From IMG/VR virus record IMGVR_UViG_3300020576_005257, positions 1 to 64,000 of that record: a DNA stretch of 64,000 bases; one strand, given 5' to 3'. The stretch comes from a virus. Taxonomy: Duplodnaviria; Caudoviricetes. Each line of letters opens with the position of its first letter. Position 1 is the stretch's first letter. The notes under the pieces are model-generated. The model saw only the letters and a program-made list of their open reading frames with translations, was not told the DNA's origin and ran no database searches. The position numbers and the translations under genes were made by a program. Below, piece after piece: positions 651 to 30,389 of this stretch.

Positions 651-688
651 GGGGCTTTAGCTCATGGCTGGTTAGAGCAGAATCCTTA
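651..688 (+). pseudogene. 5' half of an interrupted class I tRNA (probably Ile)
   Basis: GGGGCTT-TA-GCTC-ATGGCTGGTTA-GAGC-A-GAATC-CTTA; acceptor and anticodon stems pair with 1530..1569. Confidence 0.85.
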
Positions 689-699
689 AAAACTAGTTT

Positions 700-791
700 G
701 GTAGTGTAGCTCAGTCGGTCAGAGCCCGTGCCTTATAAGCGCGAAGCCCCAACAAGGTATACGGTAAGTTCAAATCTTCCCACTACCACCA
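700..791 (+). tRNA. tRNA-Ile(UAU) with long variable region, nested inside the split tRNA
   Basis: GGTAGTG/CACTACC acceptor, A73-CCA, CGTGC-CT-TAT-AA-GCGCG anticodon arm, ~20-nt extra arm, GTAAG-TTCAAAT-CTTCC T arm. Confidence 0.88.
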
Positions 792-1477
792 TTAATTTTT
801 AAAATTCCATGATCAAATTCCCAATGACAATTTGGACATAACCAAACTAAATTTTCTACTTTATTAATTTCACTAATTAAAGTACTTTTTTCATGTTCAC
901 TAATCCCTTTTATATGACAACATTCTACATGTTTATCATATTTACATACTAAACACTTCTTATCTGGAAAGTGACTTTTCAAAATATTTCTCGCATGGAA
1001 TCTAATATTGCCGAATCTATTGGAACCCTGACCTTTAGTATTTGTTTCTTCTTCTAATGTTCTACTAGCTATTCCAGGTTTTAGTATTATAATTTTTCCT
1101 TTCTTTTCAGCAACTAAACCTCTTTCTATTTCCTTCTTTATAAAACATTCTTTACAGTATGTTAACTTAGACTTTATTTTTGTTTGGCAATTTTTACATT
1201 TGCCTTCCATTTCTCTTTTTGGAGTTTTTCTATTATTACTTTTTGCTCCACAACTTTGCGAACAGAACTTTCTATTTGTTTCCTTAGTTTTGAAAGATTT
1301 TCCACAATATTCACATAAAATTTCTGTTTCTTCCCTTCTTCTGGATAAATGCTGACATTTACTAGAACAATAAGGTTTGTAAGTAGGATTATCTTTCTTC
1401 CTTCTTGCTACTTCCTTCGTAGTTTTAAAGACCTCTAAACCGCAAAAACTACAATTCAACTTAATTTTCTTTTCCAT
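770..1477 (-). CDS. HNH homing endonuclease with Zn-finger repeats
   Basis: CHIKGIS...ENLVWLCPNCHWEFDHG HNH core, CxxC/FCSxxC repeats; likely start MEKKIKLNC at 1477 because the longer track ORF runs over the tRNA half. Confidence 0.88.
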   Translation of the reverse strand: MEKKIKLNCSFCGLEVFKTTKEVARRKKDNPTYKPYCSSKCQHLSRRREETEILCEYCGKSFKTKETNRKFCSQSCGAKSNNRKTPKREMEGKCKNCQTKIKSKLTYCKECFIKKEIERGLVAEKKGKIIILKPGIASRTLEEETNTKGQGSNRFGNIRFHARNILKSHFPDKKCLVCKYDKHVECCHIKGISEHEKSTLISEINKVENLVWLCPNCHWEFDHGILKINGGSGKI

Positions 1478-1529
1478 CTTATTTAAGATAGAGGAACCAA
1501 ATTGAACTGAAACTACTAACAAAATTTTA

Positions 1530-1569
1530 AAGATTTTGGTGCTGGGTTCGACCCCCAGAGGCCCCACCA
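1530..1569 (+). pseudogene. 3' half of the interrupted tRNA begun at 651
   Basis: AA-GATTT-TGGTG-CTGGG-TTCGACC-CCCAG-AGGCCCC-A-CCA. Confidence 0.85.
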
Positions 1570-1579
1570 ACAAACTAAT

Positions 1580-1849
1580 ATGTTATACTTAATTCCCTTA
1601 CTTGTTATTATATACCTTATCATAGGTGTATTTGTTGTAGCTAGATGCTTAATGAATCATTACGATTTCAATCATCATCACCATGATGCATTTGAACTTA
1701 TTATGTTCATTATAGTTTCGTGTCTATGGCCTTTAGTCCTAGTACGTAACTTCTTAGCATCTATTTTCCATTATTTTCATAACCTACCAAATATATTCTT
1801 TGGGTTTGTCTACAAAGTAACTAACTTTCCACCTAGGAAGATTGATTAA
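1580..1849 (+). CDS. hypothetical membrane protein
   Basis: two hydrophobic segments. Confidence 0.6.
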   Translation: MLYLIPLLVIIYLIIGVFVVARCLMNHYDFNHHHHDAFELIMFIIVSCLWPLVLVRNFLASIFHYFHNLPNIFFGFVYKVTNFPPRKID

Positions 1850-2842
1850 CATGAACAAATATGAATCTATAGCTGTTGTTGCTGTATGTGCTTTCTTAGC
1901 TGTTGTCTTATCTTTTGGTGCTCAGTGTACTTCAGAGACTGTAAAGTCTAATAATAGAGTTAAGATAGCTGAAATTCAGTATAGAGAACAAAAATGATTG
2001 AACGGAAGGATGCATTAAAAGTCTGGAAGAATCTAGATAAAAACCAACAGCAGCAAGTTCATCAAGTTTCTTCTTACAAGGAACTACCTTTCTCAGTTTT
2101 TACTTTATCTACTAGTATGATTCATCATGCTCTTCAAGAAGCTGAGAGCAAAAACCTTGATTTGTTATCTAGAGTTTCTAATAAGGATTAAACTATGTTC
2201 TTTACTATGTTTCTCGTTTTCCTCATCATAGCTTTTTTAGGTATGTGGTTATTTGGTGATGATCCATTTCTAGAAGGTATGGGTTGTTTTGCTCCATTTT
2301 GTGGACTTCTTATAGGAGTTTTCCTTCTCACTAATCAGAATTTATTCTTTGTATTAACTTTACCTATGTTATTTGTTTATATGTTCTGTCTTGTAAGAGA
2401 TACTAGAAAACTTAATAACTTACGAAAAAATCAAGAAAATGAAAAAGAAGATTACTAAATTTAAGTTTTCTGGAAGAGATTCTCATAAAACTCCACCACA
2501 GCTATATTTTTTAACCAGACTACTATCTGTAAATGATTCTTCCAGTACTAAGAATAAACTAATTGATTCAGGTAAGTTAGTTATTAACTGTGGTTGCGAA
2601 GCAACCACAAATCAATTTTTAGTTAGTGTACTTGATAACAACTATAGTCAAACTATGTCAATCTTGAAGGAAAACTAAAAGGAACTTGAATATGTCTCAG
2701 CAAACAATAATTGATTCTCCTACCAAGTGTATAGTTTGTGGTAAGTTTATGTCAGATGATCAGGTTCTACTTGGTTGGACTAAACTTAAAGATATGGGTG
2801 GATATTCTCTTGAAGAATATGCTCATTACGAATGTTATCTAG

Positions 2843-3223
2843 ATGATCCTGAAGTTAAACACAGGGTATAGTAATATGAGAAAAAAAGGAAGACGACAAA
2901 GGCCTGCTACTTTTGCAATGCAACATGAATATGCATATCTTTCTATGACTCAGGAAGAATATCAGAATGCTCAACAGGTCAACTGGAAGGAACCTTATTA
3001 TTGGAAAGATGTAGATAAATATCCAAACAAGAAAGAACTAACTAATTTAGGTTGTGGAGGATGGAATCATAAAAGGTACTATTACCATCCTTCCAGTGGT
3101 GCTATTTATGCTACTAAGAATGGTAGATGGATGGTTAAGTATTTTACTGAAAAGAATACTACTGATACTAGACTTATTCAAAATAGCTTTGGTGAAAGGG
3201 GACAATTCTATGACGCTAACTGA
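2843..3223 (+). CDS. hypothetical protein
   Basis: ORF in tightly packed + strand run. Confidence 0.55.
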   Translation: MILKLNTGYSNMRKKGRRQRPATFAMQHEYAYLSMTQEEYQNAQQVNWKEPYYWKDVDKYPNKKELTNLGCGGWNHKRYYYHPSSGAIYATKNGRWMVKYFTEKNTTDTRLIQNSFGERGQFYDAN

Positions 3224-3278
3224 GACTCCTTGCTGGGAACTTTTGGTATCCCTTCACAGTTTAGATTCCTTTATATAG
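3210..3278 (+). pseudogene. orphaned 5' start of the gene that continues at 4052
   Basis: MTLTETPCWELLV vs MIVSQHKLFELLVP; GAACTTTTGGT repeated at 3237-3247 and 4079-4089, GGACAAT upstream of both ATGs. Confidence 0.6.
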
Positions 3279-4015
3279 ACTAGTAATCCTTCAACCTTTT
3301 CTTCGTTTTCTTCTAAAAATCCAAGGGCTAAGTTACACGATCTGCATAAAAGACCTCTTATACACTTCCCACAAGAAAATCTTTTATTGCAACATTTATG
3401 GTCATGGTCAATACTGTGGATTGGTAAACTACATCCTTCAATTGCACATACTCCATTCTGCTTGTTGAAGAGATCGAAGTAAATGTCATATCTCATATTA
3501 TGTTTTGCTAATTGAGTACAAATTTTACAATAAGGTTTTCTTCCAGATGGCCTGCTTGATACTTTACCAAAATCTTCCAATCTTCTTGTTCTATTACACC
3601 AAGGACAAAACTTCTCTTCTAAGGTAAATTTTCTACTAGTTAAAGAAATCTTTTTTCCTTTACAGTTACTACACCCTCTTGACTTACCGGATTTCAGATC
3701 TCCCCCATTAATGGTCTTTACAATACCACAAGAACATTTACATTCCCACATTGTTCCTTTATGTCTCTTTGCTGATCTACCCAAAACGGTCCAATCCCCA
3801 AAGTTTAGACCCTCCAAATCCTTATATTCACCTTGGAGTGCTCTACCTGAAAAATGACTAATATCTATCCCCAACTCCTCTATTCTTTTTTTCACTTTTC
3901 TGATATTATAGCTATCATAGGATAAGCCACATTGATTCAAAATGTGCTTTTTGCTATCAGCTCTTTCAACTAAGTTTCTGAAAGCTGACTCTTCTATTAA
4001 ATCTATCTTTCCCAT
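3254..4015 (-). CDS. Endonuclease VII-like (His-Me) homing endonuclease
   Basis: IDHDHKCC...CGKCIRGLLCRSCNLALG; WECKCSCG...SRGC module; N-terminal IDISHFSG module. Confidence 0.88.
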   Translation of the reverse strand: MGKIDLIEESAFRNLVERADSKKHILNQCGLSYDSYNIRKVKKRIEELGIDISHFSGRALQGEYKDLEGLNFGDWTVLGRSAKRHKGTMWECKCSCGIVKTINGGDLKSGKSRGCSNCKGKKISLTSRKFTLEEKFCPWCNRTRRLEDFGKVSSRPSGRKPYCKICTQLAKHNMRYDIYFDLFNKQNGVCAIEGCSLPIHSIDHDHKCCNKRFSCGKCIRGLLCRSCNLALGFLEENEEKVEGLLVYIKESKL

Positions 4016-4051
4016 AGTAATTTAAATAGAGGATTTCCAAGGACAATAATA

Positions 4052-4408
4052 ATGATTGTTTCCCAACATAAACTGTTCGAACTTTTGGTCCCGCATCGGA
4101 TGGGCCAGCATGATAACTCTAATCCTAATATTCCTAGAAGTAATAAGACTATCCCTGTACCCTGGCACCGTGATTGGGATGCCTTTGTCATTGAAATTAG
4201 TGGTGGTTTGACTCTACAAAGGGCAACTAGAGGTCAGTGGATCTGTCCTAATGGAAAACTGTACAAAGAGATTATGATCCCTGTACGTATCGCCTGTACA
4301 GAAGAACAGATAGCTATCATAGCTGACTTTACCCTTGAACATTATAAACAGTTAGCAGTATTTGTAACTCTCATTTCAGAAAGAACTCTTATATTTACTA
4401 GAGAATAA
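4052..4408 (+). CDS. conserved phage hypothetical protein
   Basis: ELLVP...WD...ISGGLT...GQW...MIPVRIACTEEQI pattern. Confidence 0.7.
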   Translation: MIVSQHKLFELLVPHRMGQHDNSNPNIPRSNKTIPVPWHRDWDAFVIEISGGLTLQRATRGQWICPNGKLYKEIMIPVRIACTEEQIAIIADFTLEHYKQLAVFVTLISERTLIFTRE

Positions 4409-4739
4409 TTATGGAAACACAATCAGATAGTTCTACCGTTACTGAACTTACAGTTAAGGATTTACAACTTTATCCTATTTATACTGTGTATAGAGTAGCT
4501 GAACAAATACTTCCAAAAACAAAACATAGTAAAATTAGTCAGGACATTGTTATACTAGGATCTGACTCAGACGGATATAAAGTATATCATTCTGTAACTA
4601 CTTTATATTATACAGCTAAAACTTGTCCTTGGTCAGCAACTTCCTCTGGTTATAAACTTAAAGACGCTAAGAAACTAGCTTTAAAAGCTTTTAAAGATTT
4701 ATCTGAAAGACAAATTGGATGGAGGTTAACAAATAACCA

Positions 4740-5192
4740 TTGAAAGTTTTGTTTCTAGATATTGATGGTGTTTTAAACTATCTTGGTTTCTCTGCTCCTA
4801 AGATTCATCCAGATAAAGTTAGGCTGCTTAATAAGTTTTTAGATAAGTATCCTGAACTACAGGTAGTTATTAGTTCTTCTTGGAGATTTATAGTGAACCG
4901 TGGTGATATAAACTTAGATGGATTAAGATTTTTATTTAGGACTCATGGAATAGATTTGATGAATCCTGATGGTACTAACAGACTTATAGCTGTTACTAAC
5001 CCTAATATACTTAACAGAGGCAGAGCTATAAATGATTTTCTAGATCATAACAAAATAGAAAACTTTGTAGTCTTTGATGATGAATACATAAGCTTAGAGA
5101 CTAGTTTCCAAAAACATTTTGTATATATAGATAGTAGACAGGGTTTAACCAAATCAAATATTGAATATGCTAGTAAAATACTAGGAGAATAA
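4740..5192 (+). CDS. HAD-family phosphatase (Swiss-Army-knife RNA repair type)
   Basis: KVLFLDIDGVLN, VVISSSWR, RG..I, FVVFDD, GLT motifs. Confidence 0.85.
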   Translation: MKVLFLDIDGVLNYLGFSAPKIHPDKVRLLNKFLDKYPELQVVISSSWRFIVNRGDINLDGLRFLFRTHGIDLMNPDGTNRLIAVTNPNILNRGRAINDFLDHNKIENFVVFDDEYISLETSFQKHFVYIDSRQGLTKSNIEYASKILGE

Positions 5193-5196
5193 ACTA

Positions 5197-5934
5197 ATGC
5201 AGATAATCGATCACAATAAGCAATTTTACGATTTTGTGATTCAAGATTACCAACCTAGAACTTTCTGGAAAAGAGAGGAAAAGACTCTTTCCGTTTTAAG
5301 AAATCAAGATAACTTTACAGACGAGCAAAAAAGATTAATATCTTACTTTGATATTCATTGGTCTAGAAATTGGATGTCAATGAGAACCAAGCGACTTGTT
5401 CTTTTGGCTATAGGAGATTTAGTTTACAAACTTACTCTAAAAACTAAGTCCACCCTTACTAAAGAACAAGCTGATAGTAATCCTAACATGGTCTGTTTTG
5501 AGAATACTAAGTATATCTTTGATTTTCTTAAAGATGAAGACTTAGAAATTTTATTATCCCCAACAGGCAAGGAAAAGATAGGTGATTTGATTAACAACAA
5601 TGATCTTTTTACTAATATTAAAAAGTATCAAGTTGCTTTCAATCAACCTGTAGTATTATTTATGCCTTACGGTAATCCACTTGCAGGTATGAATGAATAT
5701 GATTATTCTACCGAAATAGGCGAGCCTAGAATCATGATTACCCATTCGCCTAACTTGAATAGGTTTTATGATTTACTTGCTAACGATGCTATGCTTATCT
5801 ACCAAGAGATTGAGACATGGTTAAGTAGACAGAATCCTGAACCAATAACAACCGTGGGTGGTGATCAAATTATTGCACAATCTAAAGGCTTTGATGATAA
5901 AAACTTTAGAAAAGCACCCTCTAAGAAAAAATAA
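5197..5934 (+). CDS. hypothetical protein
   Basis: 245-aa ORF between HAD and RNA ligase. Confidence 0.65.
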   Translation: MQIIDHNKQFYDFVIQDYQPRTFWKREEKTLSVLRNQDNFTDEQKRLISYFDIHWSRNWMSMRTKRLVLLAIGDLVYKLTLKTKSTLTKEQADSNPNMVCFENTKYIFDFLKDEDLEILLSPTGKEKIGDLINNNDLFTNIKKYQVAFNQPVVLFMPYGNPLAGMNEYDYSTEIGEPRIMITHSPNLNRFYDLLANDAMLIYQEIETWLSRQNPEPITTVGGDQIIAQSKGFDDKNFRKAPSKKK

Positions 5935-5936
5935 TT

Positions 5937-6956
5937 ATGAAGCACATTTCTTGGCCCAAAATTGGGCAGTTTAGTCAAGTTATTAGGGAAATTTCCATTG
6001 ATACTTCTTTTGTAGGTTTTGATGAGGATTTTCAGCCTATTTATGACTCTACACTACCTAAACCTACACTTAAATTTACTGGAACGGTAAAACTTCACGG
6101 AACTAATGCTGGAGTATCTTATAATAAGGAACATGGCATTTGGTTTCAATCTCGTGAGAATATTATAACTCCTTTAAAAGATAATGCTGGGTTTGCTTTC
6201 TTTGCAGATTCAATTAAGGAGCATTTCTTAAACTTCTTTAATGCAGTATATGAAAATTTTGAATTAACTGAAGACCATACTCTCACTATCTTTGGTGAAT
6301 GGGCTGGAGAAGGAATTCAAAAAGGGGTAGCTATTTCTAAATTGCCAAAAGCTTTTTATGTTTTTGGTCTCAAAGTATCGAAAGATGAGGCTGATTTTAA
6401 GAACTACTATCTAGACTCTTCATGGATTAAACTTCCAGAAGAAAGAATCTACAACATTTATGACTTTCCTTCTTATCAGTTAGAAATTGATTTTAACAAT
6501 CCCAAAACTGCTCAGAATGATTTAATCCACATTACTGAACAGGTAGAGAAAGAATGTCCTGTAAGTAAAACTCTTGGTATTTCAGGTACAGGTGAAGGTG
6601 TTGTTTGGACTGGAGAATACAAGGGTCAGAATTATCGCTTCAAGGTGAAAGGAGCAGAACATTCTGTTTCAAAGGTTAAAACCTTGGCACCAGTTGACGA
6701 AGAAAAACTGGAATCAATTAAAGCTTTTGTTGATTATGCAGTTACTGAGAATCGTTTAGATCAAGCTATTGAAAAGAATGGTTCAGAAATGACTAACCTT
6801 GGTGATGTTATTAGGTGGATGGTTAATGACATTGTTACTGAGGAGAGTCAGACTATGAAGAAGAGTGGTCTTGAGCCAAAGTCAGTGAATAGTGAAGTTG
6901 CTAAAAGAACGAGGATGATGTTTATCACAAGATCACAACAAGGTTTGTTAATTTAA
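5937..6956 (+). CDS. RNA ligase, Rnl2 family
   Basis: KLHGTN (motif I), IFGEWAG, FYVFG, GEGVVW, FKVKG nucleotidyltransferase motifs. Confidence 0.88.
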   Translation: MKHISWPKIGQFSQVIREISIDTSFVGFDEDFQPIYDSTLPKPTLKFTGTVKLHGTNAGVSYNKEHGIWFQSRENIITPLKDNAGFAFFADSIKEHFLNFFNAVYENFELTEDHTLTIFGEWAGEGIQKGVAISKLPKAFYVFGLKVSKDEADFKNYYLDSSWIKLPEERIYNIYDFPSYQLEIDFNNPKTAQNDLIHITEQVEKECPVSKTLGISGTGEGVVWTGEYKGQNYRFKVKGAEHSVSKVKTLAPVDEEKLESIKAFVDYAVTENRLDQAIEKNGSEMTNLGDVIRWMVNDIVTEESQTMKKSGLEPKSVNSEVAKRTRMMFITRSQQGLLI

Positions 6957-6973
6957 AGAAATTATTAACAATT

Positions 6974-7049
6974 TACCCAGTAGTCTAATTGGTAGGACGC
7001 CTCCCTTTGGTGGAGGAGATTCTGGGTTCGAAACCTAGCCGGGTAGCCA
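6974..7049 (+). tRNA. tRNA-Gln(UUG)
   Basis: TACCCAG/CCGGGTA acceptor with U1-A72 (one mismatch), CCTCC-CT-TTG-GT-GGAGG, TTCGAAA T loop, G73-CCA. Confidence 0.9.
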
Positions 7050-7057
7050 ACTTAAAA

Positions 7058-7390
7058 ATGATAACTAATAGAATCATCACTGAAGCTGAATTTAGACTAA
7101 AATTACAAGAGTTTTTAATTGGCTGTCCTGCCAAATGGGTAACTGGTCCTGGTAGATCAGGAGCTATAGCTGCTGTTTATGCTTCCTATTTATTGAAGAT
7201 TCCATATGTACCATATGGATGCACTCCCCATATTTATTCTGGATATCCAGTATTAGTAATTGATACTGCTAGAAATACTGGAAGAACTATGAGGAAAGCA
7301 ATTCGTAGATACTTAGCTTACTCACCTATAGAATGTGTTCTTTTTGAAGAACCACCTCGTGTTAGATTTTGGTATGAAAAGGAACTTTAA
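7058..7390 (+). CDS. phosphoribosyltransferase-fold protein
   Basis: VTGPGRSGAIAA and VLVIDTARNTGRTM (PRPP-loop-like); start moved to ATG 7058, downstream of the tRNA. Confidence 0.65.
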   Translation: MITNRIITEAEFRLKLQEFLIGCPAKWVTGPGRSGAIAAVYASYLLKIPYVPYGCTPHIYSGYPVLVIDTARNTGRTMRKAIRRYLAYSPIECVLFEEPPRVRFWYEKEL

Positions 7391-7565
7391 AATATGGCTG
7401 ACCTTCCAGACATTTATGTACAAGCATTAGTAGATATTCTTAATAATGCTAAGAACCTTGTAAGGAAAGATAATGAGTTTTTTATTCATGGAGGAGTACG
7501 TACTTTTAAAAGTGATGCTTTAGCACAAGTTTTAGACAGGCATAATCAACAAGGGAAAAAACAAA

Positions 7566-8294
7566 ATGGCACTACCACCACCTGAAATAGTAAACTATCA
7601 GGACAGTAAAACTCTAACTTTACTCAACCCAGACCAAGAGATTATTGTAGTTAACAAAGTAGAATTAAATCTACAAGACTTAACTAAAGTAGCCACCTTA
7701 ATTTTTAAGGAAGTTGCTGAAACTAAACTTCATCAACTTGATGCTCTTCGTCTTACCTACGATGATAGAGAAGTTTATAAAGATCAATATTACTCTTTAT
7801 CTCAGGAATGGTGGGATTATCAATCACCTTTAGCTCCTGTTTTGGCATCAATCAATTCTGTAAGTAGAAAGAAGTATAGAACTGAACTTCCAGTTGAAAT
7901 GCCTAATTTTGTTTATACTACTTCTCCTGTGCATGGTGAATATTATGATGATTATTGTGATGATAATCATGACGACTCACGTCTTTGTATAAAAATTAAG
8001 AAATATGCTGCTATGGTTAAAGATCATTCTGCATATATGAGCAAACATGAATGTACTGCCATTCTAGATAGAAATAAAGAAATATCTGCTCAAATGGGTC
8101 GAGTTCAATATTGGTTATCCTATCCAAAGGAATTAAATGATAGGCTATTCCCTTACATAACTCAAGCTGTTATGATGGGTACACTTACTCCTAATGATTT
8201 CAAGCCAACTATTGCTAAGATATCCAAACAAATTGTAGAAGACCTCATTAATAAAAGACCTACTAATGTAGAATTTACATCTAATAATTACTAA
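7566..8294 (+). CDS. hypothetical protein, paralog of 8302..8958
   Basis: shared DxxKVAxxIFK and MxGxLTPxxF segments. Confidence 0.65.
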   Translation: MALPPPEIVNYQDSKTLTLLNPDQEIIVVNKVELNLQDLTKVATLIFKEVAETKLHQLDALRLTYDDREVYKDQYYSLSQEWWDYQSPLAPVLASINSVSRKKYRTELPVEMPNFVYTTSPVHGEYYDDYCDDNHDDSRLCIKIKKYAAMVKDHSAYMSKHECTAILDRNKEISAQMGRVQYWLSYPKELNDRLFPYITQAVMMGTLTPNDFKPTIAKISKQIVEDLINKRPTNVEFTSNNY

Positions 8295-8301
8295 GACTAT
8301 C

Positions 8302-9730: not shown

Positions 9731-9759
9731 GCTCGGGTGGCGGAATTGGTAGACGTAGC
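9731..9759 (+). pseudogene. 5' fragment of interrupted tRNA-Leu
   Basis: GCTCGGG-TG-GCGG-AATTGGTAG-ACGT-A-GC; acceptor pairs with CCCGAGT at 10335-10341. Confidence 0.85.
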
Positions 9760-9773
9760 ACAACACTATATGT

Positions 9774-10205
9774 GTGGCTACAAGAAAATACAATTCTTAT
9801 ACTATAGATCAGTTAAAAGAAGCTGTTTCTACTTCCTTTTCAATTGCTCAAGTTTTGAGGCTCTTAGATTTAGCTCCAGTAGGTGGTAACTATTCTACTA
9901 TGAGAGTTAAGATTGCTAAACATTCAATTGATACTTCTCATTTTACTGGAATGTTATGGAATAAAAATAAATCTTTAAAAGATTATAGTGAATATAAAAG
10001 AAATGGTAATCTTAAAAATAAGCTTATCAAACAGGAAGGACATATTTGTATGAATTGTCAAAATGCTAAGTGGCAATCCTTACCTATTCCACTTGAATTA
10101 CACCATATTAATGGGAATTCTACTGATAATTCTAGAGAGAATTTACAGTTACTATGTCCTAATTGTCATTTTCAAACTCCTAACTTTAGAGGAAGAAATA
10201 TTTAG
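9774..10205 (+). CDS. HNH homing endonuclease
   Basis: CMNC...LELHHINGNSTDNSRENLQLLCPNCH; N-terminal IDTSHFTG module. Confidence 0.9.
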   Translation: MATRKYNSYTIDQLKEAVSTSFSIAQVLRLLDLAPVGGNYSTMRVKIAKHSIDTSHFTGMLWNKNKSLKDYSEYKRNGNLKNKLIKQEGHICMNCQNAKWQSLPIPLELHHINGNSTDNSRENLQLLCPNCHFQTPNFRGRNI

Positions 10206-10209
10206 TTTT

Positions 10210-10295
10210 GGCCCGATGGTGGAACTGGTTTACACAGCAGGTTTAAGCCCTGCTTTCCGAAAGGATTGAGAGTTCGAGTCTCTCTCGGGTCACCA
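10210..10295 (+). tRNA. tRNA-Leu(UAA), nested inside the split tRNA-Leu
   Basis: GGCCCGA/TCGGGTC, GCAGG-TT-TAA-GC-CCTGC, long variable arm TCC-GAAA-GGA, A73-CCA. Confidence 0.93.
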
Positions 10296-10345
10296 AATCC
10301 GTTGACTGGGAAGTCGTATGGGTTCAAGTCCCTTCCCGAGTACCA
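10296..10345 (+). pseudogene. 3' fragment of interrupted tRNA-Leu
   Basis: AA-TCCGT-(GAC..GTC variable arm)-ATGGG-TTCAAGT-CCCTT-CCCGAGT-A-CCA. Confidence 0.85.
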
Positions 10346-10351
10346 ACTTTT

Positions 10352-16167: not shown

Positions 16168-16169
16168 CT

Positions 16170-20435: not shown

Positions 20436-21041
20436 ATGCAGAACCACTTGTTGCATACAGACGTTATTGATCTTATAATCAAACACCATTACCAGCGGCT
20501 AATCAATATTTCATTCCGTATTTGCGGTAATCTTGATGATGCTAACGATGTTGTTCAAGATATTTTACTTAGAGTAACTAAAGAACCAGAAAAGTATCAA
20601 GGAGAACCAATTACTACTGCCTCATCTTTTCCTTTACCAACTAACAATCCTTTCCTTTGTTACATTGTTTCTGGTATTACAAGACGTTCTATCGATAGGG
20701 CAGTTCTTTCTAAAACTAATTCTTCTCGATATTCTAAACATGCTAATTTAGAAATTACTGAACAACAATATGCTAATACTAATGATCCTAAATGTATTGA
20801 CTATTTTGGTTGCAATATGGTAACTGAATTTGATGAACCTTTTCTGGAAGAAAGGAAGTATATTATTTCCTTCTTACCTAAATTATCCTCACAACAATCT
20901 AGATTAATTATGGGTGTTTTGGAAGGAGATTCCTATCAGGAAATAGCTGACAAAAATAACATTCTTTTGGGTTCCATGAAATCTAATCTATTCAGAGCTA
21001 AAAGAAAGATAATTAATAGTTTAGTCTTAGCAAATCATTGA
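20436..21041 (+). CDS. ECF-type sigma-70 family factor
   Basis: region 2 DDANDVVQDILL; region 4 SYQEIA...LGSMKSNLFRAKRKI. Confidence 0.85.
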   Translation: MQNHLLHTDVIDLIIKHHYQRLINISFRICGNLDDANDVVQDILLRVTKEPEKYQGEPITTASSFPLPTNNPFLCYIVSGITRRSIDRAVLSKTNSSRYSKHANLEITEQQYANTNDPKCIDYFGCNMVTEFDEPFLEERKYIISFLPKLSSQQSRLIMGVLEGDSYQEIADKNNILLGSMKSNLFRAKRKIINSLVLANH

Positions 21042-21180: not shown

Positions 21181-21259
21181 GCAGTAGTAGCTCAGTGGTC
21201 GAGAGCGGGGACCTCTAAATTCCTGTCATTCATCGGGGGTTCGAATCCCCCCTACTGCG
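21181..21259 (+). tRNA. amber suppressor tRNA (anticodon CUA)
   Basis: perfect GCAGTAG/CTACTGC acceptor, GCTC/GAGC D stem, GGGAC-CT-CTA-AA-TTCCT, 10-nt variable region, GGGGG-TTCGAAT-CCCCC, G73; followed by CTA rather than CCA. Confidence 0.85.
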
Positions 21260-21267
21260 CTAACTTT

Positions 21268-22730: not shown

Positions 22731-23108
22731 ATGAAAACTTTATCAAAAAAAATTACTTCATCTTTCTATACTACTCCTGATAGTTTTAACTCTATAAAAC
22801 AAGTCTGGAAGAATAGGCTTGCCAATAAGGAACCTTTAACTGCTACTGATCATATGATCTATGCTATGTTGAGAGGTAAGGATTGGACTAAGGGGTTTAC
22901 TCCTGTTACTAATCCAAATAAGTTAGCTAACGGTAGAAAACCTAATGACACCAAAAAGAAACTCGTCTTTCTTCTTGTTTATGGTAGATTAGGTAACCAT
23001 CTTGACCCTTATAGACATTTAGTTTCTGAGTCTGCTTTTAGAGATATAACAATGAGCTTTGTTACTTCTGATGGTTATGCTACTAAAACACTTGAGGTTG
23101 CTTCGTGA
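22731..23108 (+). CDS. hypothetical protein translationally coupled to the Pth-like gene
   Basis: HMIYAMLRGK motif; its TGA overlaps the GTG at 23105. Confidence 0.7.
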   Translation: MKTLSKKITSSFYTTPDSFNSIKQVWKNRLANKEPLTATDHMIYAMLRGKDWTKGFTPVTNPNKLANGRKPNDTKKKLVFLLVYGRLGNHLDPYRHLVSESAFRDITMSFVTSDGYATKTLEVAS

Positions 23109-23419
23109 ACTAGGTAACTGAATATATCTATGTGTTTATCAGAAAAGATTTACCCATAGTTCAACAATTAGTTCAAGTAGGTCATGTTTGTTATGAAGCA
23201 GGAAATAAGTTTAACGCTTCTGACAATACTCACCTAGTTCTTTTCCAGATTAACTCAGAGAAAGAATTACTTAATATAGAAGAAAAGCTCTTATTGAAAG
23301 GAATTCTTACTCATAAATTCTTTGAACCAGATAATGATTATGGTTTTACATCTTTATGTACTGAGCCAATTTCTGGCAGTAAAAGAAGAAAGATATCTGG
23401 ATATACCCTCTGGTCTTAA
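23105..23419 (+). CDS. PTH2-like peptidyl-tRNA hydrolase with in-frame TAG at codon 3
   Basis: GAGGT SD at 23094-98, GTG AAC TAG GTA ACT GAA TAT ATC TAT GTG TTT; YIYVFIRKDL...QVGHV, LVL, FFEPD...TSLCTEP motifs. Confidence 0.75.
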
Positions 23420-23431
23420 GACCAGAGGGTA
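23404..23431. terminator. 28-bp perfect palindrome over the Pth-like stop codon
   Basis: TACCCTCTGGTCTT|AAGACCAGAGGGTA. Confidence 0.6.
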
Positions 23432-23442
23432 AACTGATTTCA

Positions 23443-26004
23443 ATGTTTATAAATCGAAGTTATAGTTTTTTTTACAATGAAGCAAAATTTGAGCCCACTA
23501 ATCCTACTGATTGGGATCTATATTTTTGTATTGATTACCATATCTCTCTTGTAAAAATTTCTACTTTTGATCAACTGTTTTCTAATAAAAAATGCCTTTC
23601 CTATGATTTTAAAATAGAAGCATTTATATGATATGAACTTCTTTGATTTTACATATTCTAATACTCCTCTTGGTACTTTTTTTGAATATAGAACTAAGCC
23701 TGTTGCCTTATTCAATAAAAATACCATTCTTATAGAAAATACATTTGGATCAATTTTAAGATTTTGTGGTGGTTTACTCTTTATGTTTTCTTATAACTCT
23801 AATTTAGAGGTGTTTGGATATCCAGACTAACTTACCTTATATGTACGATAGAAATGGAAAATATAGTTGGTCCTCTAATGATACTAGAAACTTTCTGTTT
23901 CAAGTTTTGTATCGTAAAGACATACTAATAATGCTACCTAGCTATGGTGAATTTTACTATTACCCAGACCTTGAAGAATTTTCCTTACATTAGTATGTTA
24001 ATTTTATATAATCACGCTTTAAAATATATTCCTCTTAGTCACCAAAGTCTCTCTAAATATCAATTTCTACCATCTAAGCCTTCTGCAATTACTCTCTTTA
24101 CTAGGTTTACTAGACCTATTTTTTATGAATGTACATTAGAAGAATTTATTTGATTATATGAGCGTATTTCTTGCACTTTACAATATAAGATTAAAACGTT
24201 CTTTTAATCTTATATTTAATCAAATTACAAAGAAACCTGGATTTAATTTTCATTATTCAAAAAATGGTCAATATACATGTCTGTTTGATTCTAATCAACC
24301 ATATCAAATAAATTTTTATTCTTCTTTTTTTGTTAATGGAATTTATCTTATAAGGCCTTGGCCTAGTACAACTTTTGTTTATAACTCATCCTTGGATGAG
24401 TTTGAATGTTTATGAAATATCTTTCTAATGATCCTCCTGGAGAGACTCAAATGCCTTTTGAAATAAGGCATTCTTATGTATATACTATTGACAATCTTCC
24501 TAAGATTATTATAGTTCAACTAAAGAATTATTTTCTGTTCGAATTTTATCCTATTAAAGATATTTATAAAGATGTTTACTATCAATTTAAATTGGAAATT
24601 TTTGAGAGGATAAGAAACAATTACTTATGATAAAATTAGCTACTAAGAAACCTTTAAAGGATGCCATTATTGGTCAAGTTGTACTACTAAATGGTAATCC
24701 TAGAATAGTCAAAAAGATAAAGAAACCTTTTTTATTTAGAACTACCTATACAGTAGTTTTTGATGACAATAGTACTATAGCTTTTACTAATACAGATCCT
24801 TACTACACTTTATTATTTCCTTTTTGGATGAGTATGGAAGATTATCAAGAAGATGTTAGAATGGGCGAACTGCCTGTTAATGAATTGTGGTTAGAAGATA
24901 ATCCTGTTTCTTTAGTAGAAAAACCAAAGAAAAATGTTCAAATTATTGAAATTAAGAAAAAACAAATAAAACTTAATTCTACTAAAGAAAATTGTGATTG
25001 TGGAAATGATTGTGAATGCAAAACCCATAAAGACTAACTTCCCAGCATCTATTACTGGTAGAATTTCTGTGTCAGGTTTTCCTAATCGTAATCACATTAT
25101 AATAACTAATTTTCTTGATTACGATAAAGTTAATTTCTATGATTCAACCATTTCTTTTGGTTATCAAAAAAATAGTCTATATAACAGTTTTAGTAATACA
25201 CCACGTACTTTCTTCTGGATAACTTCTGACATGTCTACCTATGTTTCACAATATGAAGACTTTGAGAAGCCTACAGGATTTAAAGTTAGTTGAATACTCC
25301 TTTAACTTTGGATATATTAGAACTTTCTATTAGGAAAATATTTAGCCAACCTGTAACAGGACCTCATGTTCATCCTGTATTTTTTCAAGATATGGTACAC
25401 ACTGAAGGTAAAGTTTATTTTCATAAATCAGAAACCACAAAAATAATAGTTTTTTGTGAAGGTTTTCAATTTGTTTTTCTTCCTGATGGTAAATTTATCT
25501 CAGCACAATTTTATCCTCTTTCTCACTTTTTTAATTCTAAAGATAAATTATTCTATTTACTACAATATGATATATTTCAATTGGATTCTTGATTATTATG
25601 AAATATCATAAGTATGAAAATCAATATTATCCAGCGTGGATAGGAGGAGAACCTCTTGGTTTATTTTACTATAACTCACTTACTTTATTTGTATTTAAAA
25701 CTCAAGAACAACTTATTTTATTTTCTAAAGCTGTTAATGGTATACAGAAATTCAAATTTCCAGATTTACTTTTTGGTTACGAGGTAAATTTAGAAGATTA
25801 TTTGTGTGATAAAATATAGTGCTATACGATATATTTAAGTTTGATAAATATTCAACTGGAAGTAATGAGATTCATTACATAGATAAAAATTCTAAGTTAT
25901 TGATGACTTTCTGTTTCAACCATCTTTGTTTTTTTGAAACTGATTGGCGTATATATTTTGCTTATGATTTTTCATTGGATGAGTTCGGAGTTTCTCATGT
26001 ATAA
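23443..26004 (+). repeat. cluster of 10 YxxxLEEF-family microprotein genes, interrupted by unrelated 24627..25037
   Basis: YDFKIEAF, YNSNLEVF, YYPDLEEF, YECTLEEF, YNSSLDEF, YQFKLEIF, YVSQYEDF, YLLQYDIF, YEVNLEDY, YDFSLDEF. Confidence 0.75.
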
Positions 26005-26007
26005 TTT

Positions 26008-26024
26008 TAAAAACCCTTTATGGT
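26008..26024 (+). promoter_or_regulatory. TAAAAAC-N4-TATGGT motif, candidate phage promoter
   Basis: same motif at 37016-37032 and 42935-42951, all at gene boundaries. Confidence 0.5.
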
Positions 26025-26339
26025 ATGGAAAAAGTACTAACTCAACAACCTGAAGAAACTCACCGTCAAAACGTGACTTGGTTAAAAGAAAACAACCTAG
26101 ATATCACGTTTACTTATGAACAACAAAAGAAGAAACGGCATACTAGGCAAATAACAATTTGCATAATCTCCCAAAACAAAGAGGAGATTGCTAGAGGAAT
26201 AGCTATTCAGAATCCTTCTGATACTAACAACCGTGTAGTTGGTAGAACTCTCTCTTTCTTAAATGCTACTGCTCAACTTGAAGAGGACCTTAGAAAGGCA
26301 ATTAGAGCCCACTCACCCATTAAGATGAGGCAGCACTAA
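26025..26339 (+). CDS. conserved phage hypothetical protein
   Basis: TICII...ARGIAIQNPSDTNNRVVGR pattern. Confidence 0.6.
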   Translation: MEKVLTQQPEETHRQNVTWLKENNLDITFTYEQQKKKRHTRQITICIISQNKEEIARGIAIQNPSDTNNRVVGRTLSFLNATAQLEEDLRKAIRAHSPIKMRQH

Positions 26340-26348
26340 GATTACAGT

Positions 26349-26380
26349 GTGGATATAGCTCAATGGCTTAGAGCGACTGT
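26349..26380 (+). pseudogene. 5' half of interrupted tRNA (His-like)
   Basis: GTGGATA-TA-GCTC-AATGGCTTA-GAGC-G-ACTGT; pairs with 27104..27138. Confidence 0.8.
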
Positions 26381-26390
26381 AACCTTTATG

Positions 26391-26433
26391 CATTTGGATG
26401 TAACAAAATCTTATCTTTTGTTACATCCAAATG
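26391..26433. repeat. 18-bp inverted repeat over the HNH stop codon
   Basis: CATTTGGATGTAACAAAA-TCTTATC-TTTTGTTACATCCAAATG. Confidence 0.8.
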
Positions 26434-27079
26434 TGGGTGTTTGAGAATGACAATTAGGACATAATAATCTTACATTGTCTATAGAGTTATTATTTGGATT
26501 ACCGTCAATGTGATCTAGTTGTAATACTAATTTCTTACCTTCCCATTCCTCAGAAAGACCACAAACCTTGCAAACATTAAATCCTAAATGTTTTAGTGCC
26601 CGTTTCAGCGTAAAATTAGTTTTAATTTCATTATCTTCTAATCTTTCTATTCTTTTTGTTTTCATATGTTCTTTGTAGCAATTTCGAGAACAGTAAACTC
26701 CTCTTTGTTTTTGTATATTATTATTACAAAACTTACATATTCTTTCAGTTTTTACTTGTTTAACCTTATTTCTGTTTTGGTATTTAGCATTACAAGATTG
26801 ACAGCAGAAATGGTTTTTTGATTTCTTAATGAGAGACGTTCTTTTGAAAAAAGTAACAGAACAATTTGTACACTTAATTTGTTCTTGGCTTTGCCTATGC
26901 AAAGCGAAACAAGCTACTGAACAAAATTTATGGGCTCTATTTGTTAATTTACCTGATAACACTGTTTGTACTTCATGTTTCTTCTTGTAAAAACTACATT
27001 TACAATGGTAACATTCTAAAGGAACTATTGCTCTAGATTTCAACATACTAAATTCTTCATTCGTAATTAACATCTTCAT
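26411..27079 (-). CDS. HNH homing endonuclease with Zn-finger repeats
   Basis: CKVC...LQLDHIDGNPNNNSIDNVRLLCPNCHSQT; FCSxxC repeats. Confidence 0.9.
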   Translation of the reverse strand: MKMLITNEEFSMLKSRAIVPLECYHCKCSFYKKKHEVQTVLSGKLTNRAHKFCSVACFALHRQSQEQIKCTNCSVTFFKRTSLIKKSKNHFCCQSCNAKYQNRNKVKQVKTERICKFCNNNIQKQRGVYCSRNCYKEHMKTKRIERLEDNEIKTNFTLKRALKHLGFNVCKVCGLSEEWEGKKLVLQLDHIDGNPNNNSIDNVRLLCPNCHSQTPTFGCNKR

Positions 27080-27103
27080 TGTTATAACTTAGTGTTGTCT
27101 CTA

Positions 27104-27138
27104 ATAGTAGATGGCGAGTTCAATTCTCCCTATTCACC
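27104..27138 (+). pseudogene. 3' half of interrupted tRNA (His-like, C73)
   Basis: ATAGT-AGATG-GCGAG-TTCAATT-CTCCC-TATTCAC-C; anticodon loop absent. Confidence 0.78.
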
Positions 27139-27218
27139 CCCTAGTTGATTAAAATCTTTTTGTGAACTTTAAGTTCAACCTATGTTATCCGATTAGAGAA
27201 AACAAGGATCTCGCACTT

Positions 27219-27254
27219 GCAGGACCATTCCCGATTAGGTGGTCCTGCTTTTTT
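27219..27254 (+). terminator. intrinsic terminator
   Basis: GCAGGACCA...TGGTCCTGC followed by T6. Confidence 0.75.
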
Positions 27255-27458
27255 CCCTAAAGACATGTATTATAGGTCTATTGGATACAACAAAGGTAAA
27301 ATATTTCTATGTTTTGAGCATGGTTCTTTTGTTCGTATAGCTTATCAAATAGAACACAAAATTATTAGCCTAACCCTTTTATGGAATTTAGACATCGCAA
27401 TACATTATAATCAGGCATATCCCCAATATATATATATACGATTACTTACTACAACAAT

Positions 27459-29504
27459 ATGTCACTGAATGGTAGATATCACTTAGAATTAGATAATAAA
27501 ATATCTATTGCTGTCCTTCCTCCTAGAAAAGAAATAGTTAAACTGGGAGGATGGACTTATAACATATTCATTAATAGTAAAAAACATTATGGCTTCTTTG
27601 GTGTTAATCCTAACTCTCTCAAACCTCTTCTTAGAGAGAATATTAATATAACTAACGTTTGGAAAATAAACAAATTTGCTATATCTCAAACTCAGTCTCA
27701 TTATTCAACTAATCTGGAAGAATACGTTTTATGAAAAACTCTTTAATTCACACTGTAACTCATGCTTTTGTGATACAAGTTGGTCATAGGTCTAATTATT
27801 CTAAATTATTTGGTTCTAGGTATAGAGCAGAGTTTGATAAGCAAGTAGATAAACTATGCTTAAAACTGGAAAAATATGGTCATGTTGTTTCTATTGACCA
27901 GGGAGAATGGGAATTCTTTTTAGTTATTACTATCATCACTGATAAGGAGTTTAACTCTCTCTTAAAGCTAATTGAAAAAGATTTGTTATCTTGTTTTCCT
28001 CAATTAACAGATCAACCAGTTTCTGAAATACAAAAAGAAGTTGTAGTTAAAAAGACAACTTCTAATAAAAAACCTATAGTAATAGAAGAACCAGTTTTAA
28101 TTCCACCTAAAAAAAGAGGAAGACCAAAAAAGGAGTAGCAAAGTTATGGGAGTATTAATAGTAGTTTCTACATGGTTATTCTTTATAGTATTACAAACTA
28201 TATACCATATAACCCGAAATAAGTCAAACGAAGAGCATATCATTCCTCCAGTATTAGACTTGATATGTCAATCGTTTTTCTTCACAGTTATTACTGTATT
28301 TTTACTTGTAATGATATTTAGATGATATTTCAAAAGTTTATTCTATTTCCACCAGAGCTTTGTTTTGTATATCACAATCTCCAATTTTTTAACTTAGAGC
28401 ATTTCAAGTTTATTTCTGTTTCCATAGCTAATCCTAATCTTTCCTTTCCAATTGATTATTACTATGAACTAGAAACTATGTCTATACCTAAACAATGAAA
28501 TTTCTAACATATGTTAGTCCTCTTTGTCTTTTTTCCTACGATAACTCAGTATTCAATAAAGCGACATTTTTTCCAGTTATATATATTTATCTTTCTCCAT
28601 ATGGAGGCAGTTTTGATTATCATTATGAATTAGAAGCTTACTTTAATGATATATAAAAAATATAATAACAACCTATCTCAGTTTGTTTATGATATTGGTA
28701 TTACTGAAATACATATTAATCCTACAAGAGAAAATTCTAGTATATTTGTTTGGAATTGTACTTTAGATACTTCAATGTATACGATTGGATCAGTTCTTCA
28801 TAGAATAATTTTAAACTACTCTTTACCTTTAGAATGCTACCTCACCAAGTAAAGTACCTGTGTTGTGATTTAAACTACAATAGTGTTACACTTAGTTATG
28901 GTTTACCATGTGATAAACTTGTATTCATTTATGGGCCATTTTATAATCATATAACATTAACAAAGTTCGGTCCTGAAAACATTGCAGCTACAGGTACTGT
29001 CATCTTTAAATTTAAAGTACACTATAATCCAGTGTTTGAGGAATATGTTTAATTCTTTTCAACTAGAAGGATTCTGCTTCAATTATGAAAGAACTATACC
29101 TTTAGGTTCTTATGATAAACTTTCAAAGTACTATAGAATACATGAGTGTGGTCATTATTCTGTTCTATTTTCCAAAAGTATCTATCCACGTATTCCATGG
29201 TATTGGGATAATTATATAAGGCTTGGCCCTGCTAAATACGATTCAATTTTTGAGGATTTTAGTAGAGTCTATTAAAATGAAATTCAAAGGGTTATCGTCG
29301 TATAATAATCTTTTCTATTATACAAGTGAACGTGGTATTCCTACTTTAAATTATACTCTTCTTATAGTTTATCCTTTTGATAAGTTTCTTATCAATTTCA
29401 CTATTAATCAATATAGGGAAAATAATTCAGGAACAATGATTGTAGGTCCAGCTTATCAATTAAACTATGATCAGTTTCTATCAGGAGAGGTTTACAAAAG
29501 ATAA
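27459..29504 (+). repeat. cluster of 7 YxxxLEEF-family microprotein genes (27459, 28322, 28495, 28646, 28834, 29045, 29277) with unrelated ORFs interspersed
   Basis: YSTNLEEY, YYYELETM, YHYELEAY, YSLPLECY, YNPVFEEY, YDSIFEDF, YQLNYDQF. Confidence 0.7.
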
Positions 29505-29533
29505 ACAATTTTTAACAAAAAAGGGGGTTATGC

Positions 29534-29808
29534 GCCCCAGTAGCTTAGTGGATAAAGCAACAGCCTTCTGCTAATAATATAACAGTGGGCCTTATAAGGG
29601 AAACCCTATAAGTGTAAGTTGTCAAATTCGGTGAACGCTAAAGAGAAATCCATGCCAATACCGAGCCAAGCCCTTTATGGGAAGGTGTAGAGACTAGACG
29701 GCAACTACCTAATCTCCTTTGGAGTAAGGTAAAGGTATAGTCCAACGAGTCAGGAAACTGACATAAAGTTGAAGCTGTTTATCGGAGGTTCGAGTCCTCT
29801 CTGGGGCG
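29534..29808 (+). tRNA. tRNA-Arg(UCU), exons 29534-29569 and 29772-29808, split by group I intron
   Basis: spliced: GCCCCAG-TA-GCTT-AGTGGATA-AAGC-A-ACAGC-CT-TCT-AA-GCTGT-TTATC-GGAGG-TTCGAGT-CCTCT-CTGGGGC-G. Confidence 0.9.
29570..29771 (+). ncRNA. group I intron, subgroup IC3 (Azoarcus-like), 202 nt, no ORF
   Basis: P1 UCU/GGG with U.G at splice site, P2 GAAA loop, TGTCAAATTCGG, CCGAGCCAAGC, GAAGGTGTAGAGACTAGACGGCA, ATAGTCCA, P9 GTCAG-GAAA-CTGAC, P9.0 AAC/GTT then terminal G. Confidence 0.93.
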
Positions 29809-30334
29809 CATAGCTAATATTATTTAATTCTAGTAAACCATGATCAAGTTCCCAATGACAGTTGGGACAAAGTGCTATAAGGTTTTCTATTTTGTTTATT
29901 TCTGAAACTGGTGTATTATCTGTGTGTGTACTAATACCTTTTATATGACAAATTTGTACATGTTTCTTATAAGAACACCTGGAACAGGGGCAATTTTTGC
30001 CATATGTATCTATATAGATTTTCCTTGCAAGAGTTCTTATAGCTGAATTTTTTTGATATTTTCTTCTTTCTACCATTTCCCCATAAGTAACTTTTTCCCA
30101 ATTTATCCCATTTAGTGTTCTACAATCTTTACAATATGTATAATCTGATCTTATTAAATTATTGCAAGTTTTACATATTTTTGTTCTCTTTCTTTTAGGA
30201 GTTAAATTTGTAAACTTAGCAGCGCAAGATCTAGAACAAAAGGATAATCCTGATTTTGATTTGTTTAAGTCCTTTTTTCTAATTTCTCTTTTAAACTCTT
30301 CCTTACAATTACCACACGTATAAGTTTCTACCAT
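29750..30334 (-). CDS. HNH homing endonuclease (paralog of 770..1477)
   Basis: KHVQICHIKGIS...SEINKIENLIALCPNCHWELDHG; C-terminus runs antisense through the tRNA-Arg 3' exon. Confidence 0.88.
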   Translation of the reverse strand: MVETYTCGNCKEEFKREIRKKDLNKSKSGLSFCSRSCAAKFTNLTPKRKRTKICKTCNNLIRSDYTYCKDCRTLNGINWEKVTYGEMVERRKYQKNSAIRTLARKIYIDTYGKNCPCSRCSYKKHVQICHIKGISTHTDNTPVSEINKIENLIALCPNCHWELDHGLLELNNISYAPQRGLEPPINSFNFMSVS

Positions 30335-30359
30335 ACTAATATATTAGTGTTGACATAAC

Positions 30360-30389
30360 TCGGAGGTTCGAGTCCTCTCTGAGGCGCCA
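30360..30389 (+). pseudogene. displaced duplicate 3' end of tRNA-Arg with CCA
   Basis: TCGGAGGTTCGAGTCCTCTCTGAGGCGCCA; first 28 nt are 27/28 identical to 29782-29809. Confidence 0.88.

Follow-up and report, generated by a model that had tools for sequence, protein, structure and literature searches.

Selfish endonuclease genes lie in or beside five transfer RNA (tRNA) genes of a viral contig of 234,927 bp (IMG/VR record IMGVR_UViG_3300020576_005257; 36% G+C): four of them encode HNH (His-Me finger) endonucleases (HNH1 to HNH4, at loci 1 to 4) and one a PD-(D/E)XK enzyme. The HNH genes fall within the first 64 kb of this contig (positions 1 to 64,000), the stretch analysed here and called the window, in which open reading frames (ORFs) are mostly small, on the plus strand and tightly packed; its source is best read as an uncultured jumbo phage. 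We consider it likely that these loci arose by insertion of homing endonuclease genes directed at tRNA genes, and that they show a single life cycle in several of its states. The architecture of the loci, the tie of endonuclease families to particular tRNAs and the coexistence of the different states among related phages are matters of direct observation.

Four HNH genes occupy tRNA loci in a phage genome

Run in its ordinary mode, ARAGORN called five tRNAs in the window. The search was repeated with long introns permitted, at default and relaxed thresholds; two loci (651-1569 and 29534-30389) were then called at the default threshold, and two (9731-10345 and 26349-27140) at the relaxed threshold only. 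Since the relaxed threshold is noisy and also yields spurious calls, the two weaker loci (2 and 3) were checked separately. Locus 1 was called as tRNA-Leu(taa) with an 842-nt insert, and its halves, when joined, were again called as a tRNA at the default threshold. The joined halves of locus 3 likewise gave tRNA-Glu(ctc) at the default threshold, the isotype call being weak. The outer fragments of locus 2 were recognised by nhmmer with a tRNA-Leu(UAA) profile made from 35 phage genes together with the window's own nested tRNA (Table 1). At each locus the HNH ORF is intact, with a match to Pfam HNH families and with the HNH motif residues preserved in all four translations, and HNH1 to HNH4 are the sole members of their families in the 234,927-bp genome.

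Together, the ARAGORN calls, the joining of halves, and the profile and Pfam matches confirm the claim of the first-pass annotation, made from the letters of the window and their ORFs, that HNH genes sit at four tRNA loci (651-1569, 9731-10345, 26349-27138 and 29534-30389). The complete tRNAs that it placed inside the inserts at the first two loci are also present, with Rfam scores above 50 bits. Its description of all four tRNAs as disrupted by the HNH gene holds for loci 1-3, where the gene lies between the halves of a broken tRNA, but not for locus 4, where the working tRNA-Arg is whole and HNH4 lies downstream on the opposite strand, overlapping the 3' exon.

An Rfam scan of positions 1-32000 of the window, at E up to 5, found no group I catalytic core (RF00028) in loci 1-3, locus 4 providing the only match. 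The inserts at loci 1-3 are filled by the ORF with or without a nested tRNA, and a ribozyme would not fit. With the ribozyme absent and room for it lacking, the outer tRNAs of these loci are therefore dead genes and are not spliced.

Table 1. Components of the endonuclease-bearing tRNA loci and copies of the leader motif (window positions unless marked as genome).
Locus	Feature	Position	Strand	Evidence
1	5' half of broken short-variable-loop tRNA(UAA): acceptor, D arm, anticodon stem 5' strand, full loop CTTAAAA	651-691	+	Sequence, ARAGORN
1	Complete nested tRNA, anticodon UAU, 92 nt, long variable region	700-791	+	ARAGORN; Rfam tRNA 51.9 bits
1	HNH1, 235-aa HNH_2-family endonuclease gene, antisense to the tRNAs	770-1477	-	ORF; Pfam PF13391, E 3.9e-8
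1	3' half of broken tRNA(UAA): loop remnant TTAAA, anticodon stem 3' strand, T arm, acceptor, A73, CCA	1527-1569	+	Sequence, ARAGORN, joining
2	5' fragment of broken long-arm tRNA-Leu: acceptor and Leu-type D arm	9731-9761	+	nhmmer against tRNA-Leu(UAA) profile, positions 3-30, E 0.03
2	HNH2, 143-aa HNH endonuclease gene	9774-10205	+	Pfam PF01844 and PF13392
2	Complete nested tRNA-Leu(UAA), long variable arm, variant anticodon loop TTTAAGC	10210-10295	+	ARAGORN; Rfam 50.4 bits; loop comparison
2	3' fragment of broken tRNA-Leu from about position 36 (AAATCC...): variable arm, T arm, acceptor, CCA	10296-10345	+	nhmmer, positions 37-84, E 2e-4
3	5' half of broken tRNA: acceptor, D arm, anticodon stem 5' strand	26349-26381	+	Sequence; ARAGORN relaxed threshold
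3	HNH3, 222-aa Cys-rich HNH endonuclease gene	26411-27079	-	Translation; Pfam PF01844
3	3' half of broken tRNA: loop, anticodon stem 3' strand, T arm, acceptor; CCA not encoded	27098-27138	+	Sequence, joining
4	tRNA-Arg(UCU) with a 202-nt intron following the anticodon	29534-29809	+	ARAGORN with introns
4	ORF-less group I intron	29570-29771	+	Rfam RF00028, 96 bits (gathering score 50), E 1.6e-23, match 29557-29764
4	HNH4, 194-aa HNH_2-family endonuclease gene, free-standing, antisense	29750-30334	-	ORF; Pfam PF13391, E 1.2e-7
4	Stranded remnant of older tRNA-Arg 3' end: T arm, acceptor, G73, CCA	30360-30389	+	28 nt, 96% identical to 29782-29809
tRNA-Gln	tRNA-Gln(UUG) split after the anticodon by a sense-strand PD-(D/E)XK ORF	genome 202652-203153 (L162:2153-2654)	-	Pfam PF11645, E 6e-15
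2	CAACACTA motif before HNH2	9761-9768	+	5 nt upstream of HNH2 start
3	CAACACTA motif before HNH3	27090-27097	-	
4	CAACACTA motif before HNH4	30345-30352	-	
tRNA-Gln	CAACACTA motif before PD-(D/E)XK ORF	genome 203114	-	

A complete tRNA-Leu nested in a broken tRNA-Leu gene

At locus 2, HNH2 and a complete tRNA-Leu(UAA) lie inside a broken tRNA-Leu, so that the isotype of the carried tRNA is that of the gene that was broken. The acceptor strand of the 3' fragment pairs with 9731-9737, and the outer gene is left without an anticodon arm. Because the stranded 3' fragment begins AAATCC, the old anticodon ended in A (UAA or CAA). The loop of the nested tRNA is a variant, whereas that of the stranded fragment is canonical. 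The first-pass annotation had viewed these loci in general as self-complementing cassettes, in which an endonuclease travels with a tRNA that restores the decoding function it destroys. This description suits locus 2 only: at locus 1 the carried and broken anticodons differ (UAU vs UAA), at locus 3 there is no spare, and at locus 4 there is an intron instead. For locus 2 the proposed kind of mechanism is right; extended to the remaining loci it is too broad.

HNH2 has 427 homologues. A locus search with the single HNH2 protein returned nothing, and one that used an alignment of homologues as the query returned 80 IMG/VR loci, 73 of them unique. A tRNA lies within 100 nt in 66 of the 73 unique loci, and in 60 it is tRNA-Leu(taa). 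The relatives of HNH2 at tRNA(UAA) either lie within a group I intron of that gene, adjoin an intron without an ORF, or are free-standing. In about 16 loci, halves of tRNA-Leu broken at profile position 36 flank the HNH gene, with a group I ribozyme detected by Rfam in contigs L117 (55.6 bits), L065 (35.5) and L095 (30.2) and group I core motifs seen by eye in L059. In five loci the HNH gene lies alongside a tRNA-Leu(UAA) whose intron is ORF-less (by Rfam in L116, 58.6 bits, and L118, 64.3 bits; by eye in the others), and in many a free-standing HNH gene abuts an intact tRNA(UAA). Felix O1-type phages have an HNH2 relative directly upstream of a tRNA-Leu gene; clear tRNA fragments are absent from these phages, in which HNH genes adjoin tRNA genes.

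The full layout of locus 2 (5' fragment, HNH gene with complete tRNA(UAA), 3' fragment) was seen again at five of the loci of HNH2 relatives, in the unrelated and independent IMG/VR contigs L058, L084, L108, L110 and L131. In window locus 2 and in four of these five, the outer acceptor halves pair with each other and differ between contigs, which argues for independent insertions into resident genes; in L084 such pairing of the outer fragments was not seen. The 3' fragments start at about A35, and U34/A35 is the classical insertion site of tRNA-Leu(UAA) introns.

Two side observations were made on these contigs. Bacterial leucine tRNAs have a long variable arm, and frequent partners of the HNH2 family are phage tRNAs with a Leu anticodon (mostly UAA; UAG in L055) that are only 73-77 nt long and lack this arm, as in L058:1361-1434, L108:1402-1478, L110:1368-1443 and L055:1946-2022. 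In L131, RAGATH-6, RAGATH-7 and hatchet ribozymes stand in a row (261-986; Rfam 95-174 bits) about 400 nt upstream of the nested HNH and tRNA-Leu cassette.

Intronic, nested and free-standing states among related phages

Contigs L100, L084 and L087 are related, 186-189 kb long and from one metagenome. In L100 the insert in tRNA-Leu(UAG) comprises an HNH gene and, after it, a group I ribozyme (41.8 bits, E 2e-9, 1961-2215). L084 has homologous exons (the 3' exon being 91% identical) and an HNH gene with 74% nucleotide identity, and a complete tRNA-Leu(UAA) stands at the position of the L100 ribozyme. L087 has the HNH gene and the tRNA with neither outer fragment, and its downstream flank, which is 97.5% identical to that of L084, begins exactly past the 3' end of the tRNA. 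The states of the three contigs differ, and the HNH gene is present in all of them. On a quick maximum-likelihood tree the intronic, nested and free-standing states are interleaved; the six nested rows require six changes on this tree, at least two of them forced by well-supported branches. We read these as states of one element that may convert into each other in either direction.

Locus 4 bears out the first-pass description of an intron-containing tRNA-Arg before the HNH gene and an old, CCA-bearing 3' end stranded beyond it. The 5' splice site of the group I intron is preceded by U (T29569) and the final base of the intron is G (G29771). The tail of HNH4 overlaps the 3' exon of tRNA-Arg and the end of the intron, and CCA is encoded in the remnant and not in the intact tRNA-Arg gene. 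An ORF-less intron with an adjoining free-standing endonuclease gene is the layout of a collaborative pair, and the locus fits collaborative homing, in which tRNA function would be kept by a self-splicing intron and not by a replacement isoacceptor. A search by BLAST for partial tRNA duplicates around the 52 loci of HNH1 and HNH4 relatives gave a clear case in the window alone.

We also noted that the first 11-16 nt of the tRNA-Arg intron recur nearly intact nearby, 29570-29580 at 29813-29823 (after the tRNA 3' end) and 29572-29587 at 30334-30349 (in the HNH4 leader). These near-copies could be the trace of an ancestor with the HNH gene inside the intron, or could have arisen by chance in AT-rich DNA.

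HNH4 is 40% identical to HNH1, and the relatives of this pair, members of the HNH_2 family, were found at 52 IMG/VR loci, 40 of them unique. A tRNA lies within 100 nt in 24 of the 40, Arg(tct) being the most frequent (10 loci), followed by Ile(tat) (4 loci). An HNH gene is antisense within an Rfam-positive group I intron (54.1 bits) of tRNA-Ser(gct) in L018, and antisense within a probable intron of tRNA-Arg(UCU) in L040, where core motifs are visible and the Rfam search is negative. L040 and the Arg(tct) neighbours give indirect support to the idea that HNH4 may cut intron-less tRNA-Arg alleles where the intron inserts. An antisense HNH gene splits a short tRNA(UAA) in L019, with an intact copy 200 nt off. 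In Felix O1 an HNH1 relative overlaps a tRNA-Ile gene.

Insertions at locus 1, locus 3 and a tRNA-Gln gene

At locus 1 a 14-nt spacer separates the 5' half from the nested tRNA(UAU), TTAAA is present at both junctions, and HNH1 runs for its last 22 nt, stop codon included, into the 3' end of the nested tRNA. L001 holds the closest relative of HNH1, again an antisense HNH gene abutted by a long-arm tRNA(UAU), with an intact short tRNA(UAA) 320 nt further on.

Isoleucine tRNAs do not usually have a long variable arm. Genes for tRNA(UAU) with such an arm, 86-92 nt in length, were seen in the window (700-791) and at L001:3127-3212, L011:855-942 and L012:4252-4341. These four tRNA genes align poorly, so that the alignment gives no support to a conserved unit of tRNA(UAU) and HNH gene.

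The 716-nt insert of locus 3 is almost wholly taken up by the antisense HNH3, and no nested tRNA is present in it. HNH3, like HNH2, matches PF01844. Its relatives are all distant (at most 32% identity) and lie near assorted tRNAs, which did not point to an isotype for locus 3.

Outside the window, the ORF that splits tRNA-Gln(UUG) matches PDB 2OST (E 2.5e-4), the structure of I-Ssp6803I, the endonuclease of a tRNA-fMet intron. No ribozyme was detected by Rfam in this split gene, and no spare tRNA lies inside it. The split gene was also considered as a close relative of the intact tRNA-Gln at 6974-7049, and comparison shows that the two are not closely related.

A proposed homing life cycle and its alternatives

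In the cycle that we favour, the endonuclease would act on a co-infecting phage, cutting its uninterrupted tRNA gene close to the anticodon loop, and recombinational repair would copy the endonuclease gene and its companions, with the tRNA sequence on both sides serving as homology. The insertion would destroy the recognition site and thereby render its carrier immune. Harm might then be avoided by a group I ribozyme that splices the insert from the RNA, of which locus 4 would be the collaborative variant, or by a complete spare tRNA that travels with the endonuclease inside the broken gene, as would be the case, with matching isotype, at locus 2. In a third situation nothing would be done, the phage tRNA being dispensable (locus 3 and the PD-(D/E)XK-split tRNA-Gln may be examples). 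The broken halves would be dead DNA remnants, which may still act as homology arms and would be lost over time.

When unique anticodon arms were compared, an 11-nt core (G30, A31, loop CTTAAAA, T39, C40) was found to be kept in 14 of 15 interrupted tRNA(UAA) alleles vs 11 of 41 intact tRNA(UAA) genes beside a free-standing HNH gene (Fisher p 9e-6, for rows that are mutually dependent). The loop variation of the carried tRNA is compatible with a putative resistance to the endonuclease.

Several observations weigh against the homing cycle as set out here. The 11 of 41 intact tRNA(UAA) genes that keep a canonical arm beside a free-standing HNH gene imply that loop variation is not a general basis of immunity, and the core may be conserved in interrupted alleles for the sake of base pairing by the intron itself, and not as an endonuclease target. 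The outer fragments of locus 2 are unpaired in the anticodon stem, and the junctions of that locus have therefore been remodelled. The expectation that nested and broken tRNAs share their isotype is borne out at locus 2 (Leu/Leu) but not at locus 1, where the broken tRNA has the anticodon UAA and the nested one UAU; since the two differ, the lost decoding is not restored by this cassette, and its tRNA(UAU) is better read as co-transferred cargo. The anticodon differs in L084 too, where the carried tRNA is UAA and the broken gene is the counterpart of tRNA-Leu(UAG). Finally, searches of 50,697 phage records, IMG/VR and JGI metagenomes turned up neither an empty allele nor a phage closely related to this one, so that the direction of events in this genome is one that we infer. 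A megablast search with 24 kb of the window against the 50,697 records gave no match; relatives sought in IMG/VR and JGI metagenomes through a 339-aa neighbour gene (5937-6956) were at most 46% identical, with tRNA loci that did not match; and when IMG/VR was scanned with exact patterns for the loci 1 and 3 tRNAs in unbroken form, there was no match.

Some of these points also speak for a reading that we regard as unlikely, in which the loci are pure scars: nested tRNAs would be neighbours dragged along by co-conversion and unselected as replacements, and the halves would be decaying debris without a role in mobility. SegB of T4 carries flanking tRNA genes along (PMC2330249), and the discordant anticodons of locus 1, the lack of a spare inside locus 3 and the split tRNA-Gln, and the loss of both fragments in L087 are all in keeping with hitchhiking of this sort. 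Against it stand locus 2 and the parallel contigs, 5/5 of which carry tRNA(UAA), always within a broken tRNA-Leu, and the tRNA of L084, which lies exactly at the position of the L100 ribozyme.

The variant loops could instead represent escape from host anticodon nucleases. Extended to the whole cassette, this becomes an explanation in which variant tRNAs are anti-defence cargo, kept for resisting such nucleases, and the endonucleases are mainly vehicles or amplifiers, an explanation that we find distinctly improbable. It would agree with the confinement of variant loops to intact tRNA(UAA) next to a free-standing HNH gene, and SegB-driven amplification of phage tRNA is known to defeat Septu (PMC13096335); yet most carried tRNAs keep the canonical loop, and the position of the cassette inside a tRNA gene is left unexplained.

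We give very little credence to the idea that the split genes still function, their halves being joined at the RNA level by an unrecognised intron or ligase pathway: the joined halves of loci 1 and 3 do give good cloverleaves, but no ribozyme, group I or other, appears in loci 1-3 at E up to 5, the locus 3 insert is filled by an antisense HNH ORF, and the anticodon arm is wholly missing at locus 2. Integrase-type insertion with att-site duplication, or an assembly artefact, is scarcely credible at all, for although locus 4 has a duplicated tRNA 3' end reminiscent of an att repeat, the inserts hold only the HNH ORF with or without a tRNA and no integrase or recombinase gene, the flanking ORFs are free of integrase domains, the breaks at loci 1-3 lie in the anticodon loop, and the layouts recur in independent contigs.

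Beyond the homing cycle that we prefer, we tentatively suggest, at what we would put as slightly under an even chance, that these loci belong to a widespread and as yet unnamed class of phage homing element, in which a spare tRNA takes the place of the tRNA-intron ribozyme and sits in the anticodon loop, the broken halves serve as portable homology arms, and the element switches readily between intron-borne, spare-tRNA and free-standing forms. The architecture is real and recurrent, and it is a variant of known homing strategies rather than a new category.

Other features of the phage

The sequence (A)CAACACTA stands 5-10 nt upstream of the start codons of HNH2, HNH3, HNH4 and the PD-(D/E)XK ORF (Table 1). 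It also precedes three ordinary genes (genome 206133, 115228 and 202473) and is missing from the HNH2 relatives in other phages; this phage may use it as a promoter or leader signal.

Suppressor-type tRNAs are encoded with the anticodon CUA at 21181-21260 of the window and UCA at genome 218452-218526. A crude long-ORF test for stop-codon recoding showed no clear gain of long ORFs with TAG or TGA as sense. Just upstream of the CUA suppressor tRNA lies a 201-aa ORF with sigma-70 regions 2 and 4 by Pfam (20436-21041). In another phage contig, a transfer-messenger RNA gene (L032:1469-1866; Rfam 100 bits) lies within a tRNA array.

Relation to known homing systems

I-Ssp6803I (PDB 2OST; cited in PMC3984707) is an endonuclease encoded in a bacterial tRNA group I intron, that of tRNA-fMet in Synechocystis. 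The likeness to the present loci lies in the placing of an endonuclease gene in a tRNA anticodon loop, in the match of the split tRNA-Gln ORF to 2OST, and in the relatives of HNH2 and HNH4 that reside inside tRNA group I introns; unlike I-Ssp6803I, loci 1-3 are without a ribozyme and the host is a phage. According to a 2014 review, every phage group I intron then known was in a protein-coding gene (PMC3984707).

Collaborative, or trans, homing is known for F-CphI with the psbA intron of cyanophage S-PM2 and for T4 mobE with the I-TevIII intron (PMC3984707, PMC2790892). Locus 4 differs from these in having a tRNA gene as its target, an HNH gene that runs antisense into the 3' exon, and a leftover piece of the old 3' end. 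SegB of T4 and T6 is a free-standing GIY-YIG homing endonuclease in a tRNA cluster that cuts tRNA genes and spreads with neighbouring tRNAs (PMC2330249, PMC13096335). Its nuclease family is not that of the HNH enzymes of the window, its recognition site is in the T arm, and the tRNA genes on either side of it are intact; a broken host gene with a nested spare is not described for it.

A parallel in layout to the nested cassettes is provided by the WHO elements of the yeast FBA1 gene, which home without splicing, replace part of their target with their own copy and leave old remnants behind (PMC7282813). An endonuclease gene with a replacement copy of the target, an adjoining old remnant and no splicing is what is seen at locus 2 and in L058, L084, L108, L110 and L131. 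The WHO target is protein-coding and eukaryotic, with only its 3' end replaced, whereas here a whole tRNA gene lies inside a broken one. In a literature search with incomplete full-text coverage, we found no paper on group I introns in phage tRNA genes or on a spare tRNA nested in a broken tRNA.

Our survey shows that phage tRNA genes can contain group I introns, some of them with an HNH gene and some lacking one, and L100, L084 and L087 look like natural intermediates of endonuclease genes entering or leaving introns. If the proposed cycle is correct, homing elements would have a third means of sitting in an RNA gene without doing harm, with a spare gene in place of splicing at the RNA or protein level. 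Phage tRNAs influence codon supply and, in other systems, escape from tRNA-cleaving defences, and the elements described here point to a route by which tRNA genes may be exchanged between unrelated phages.

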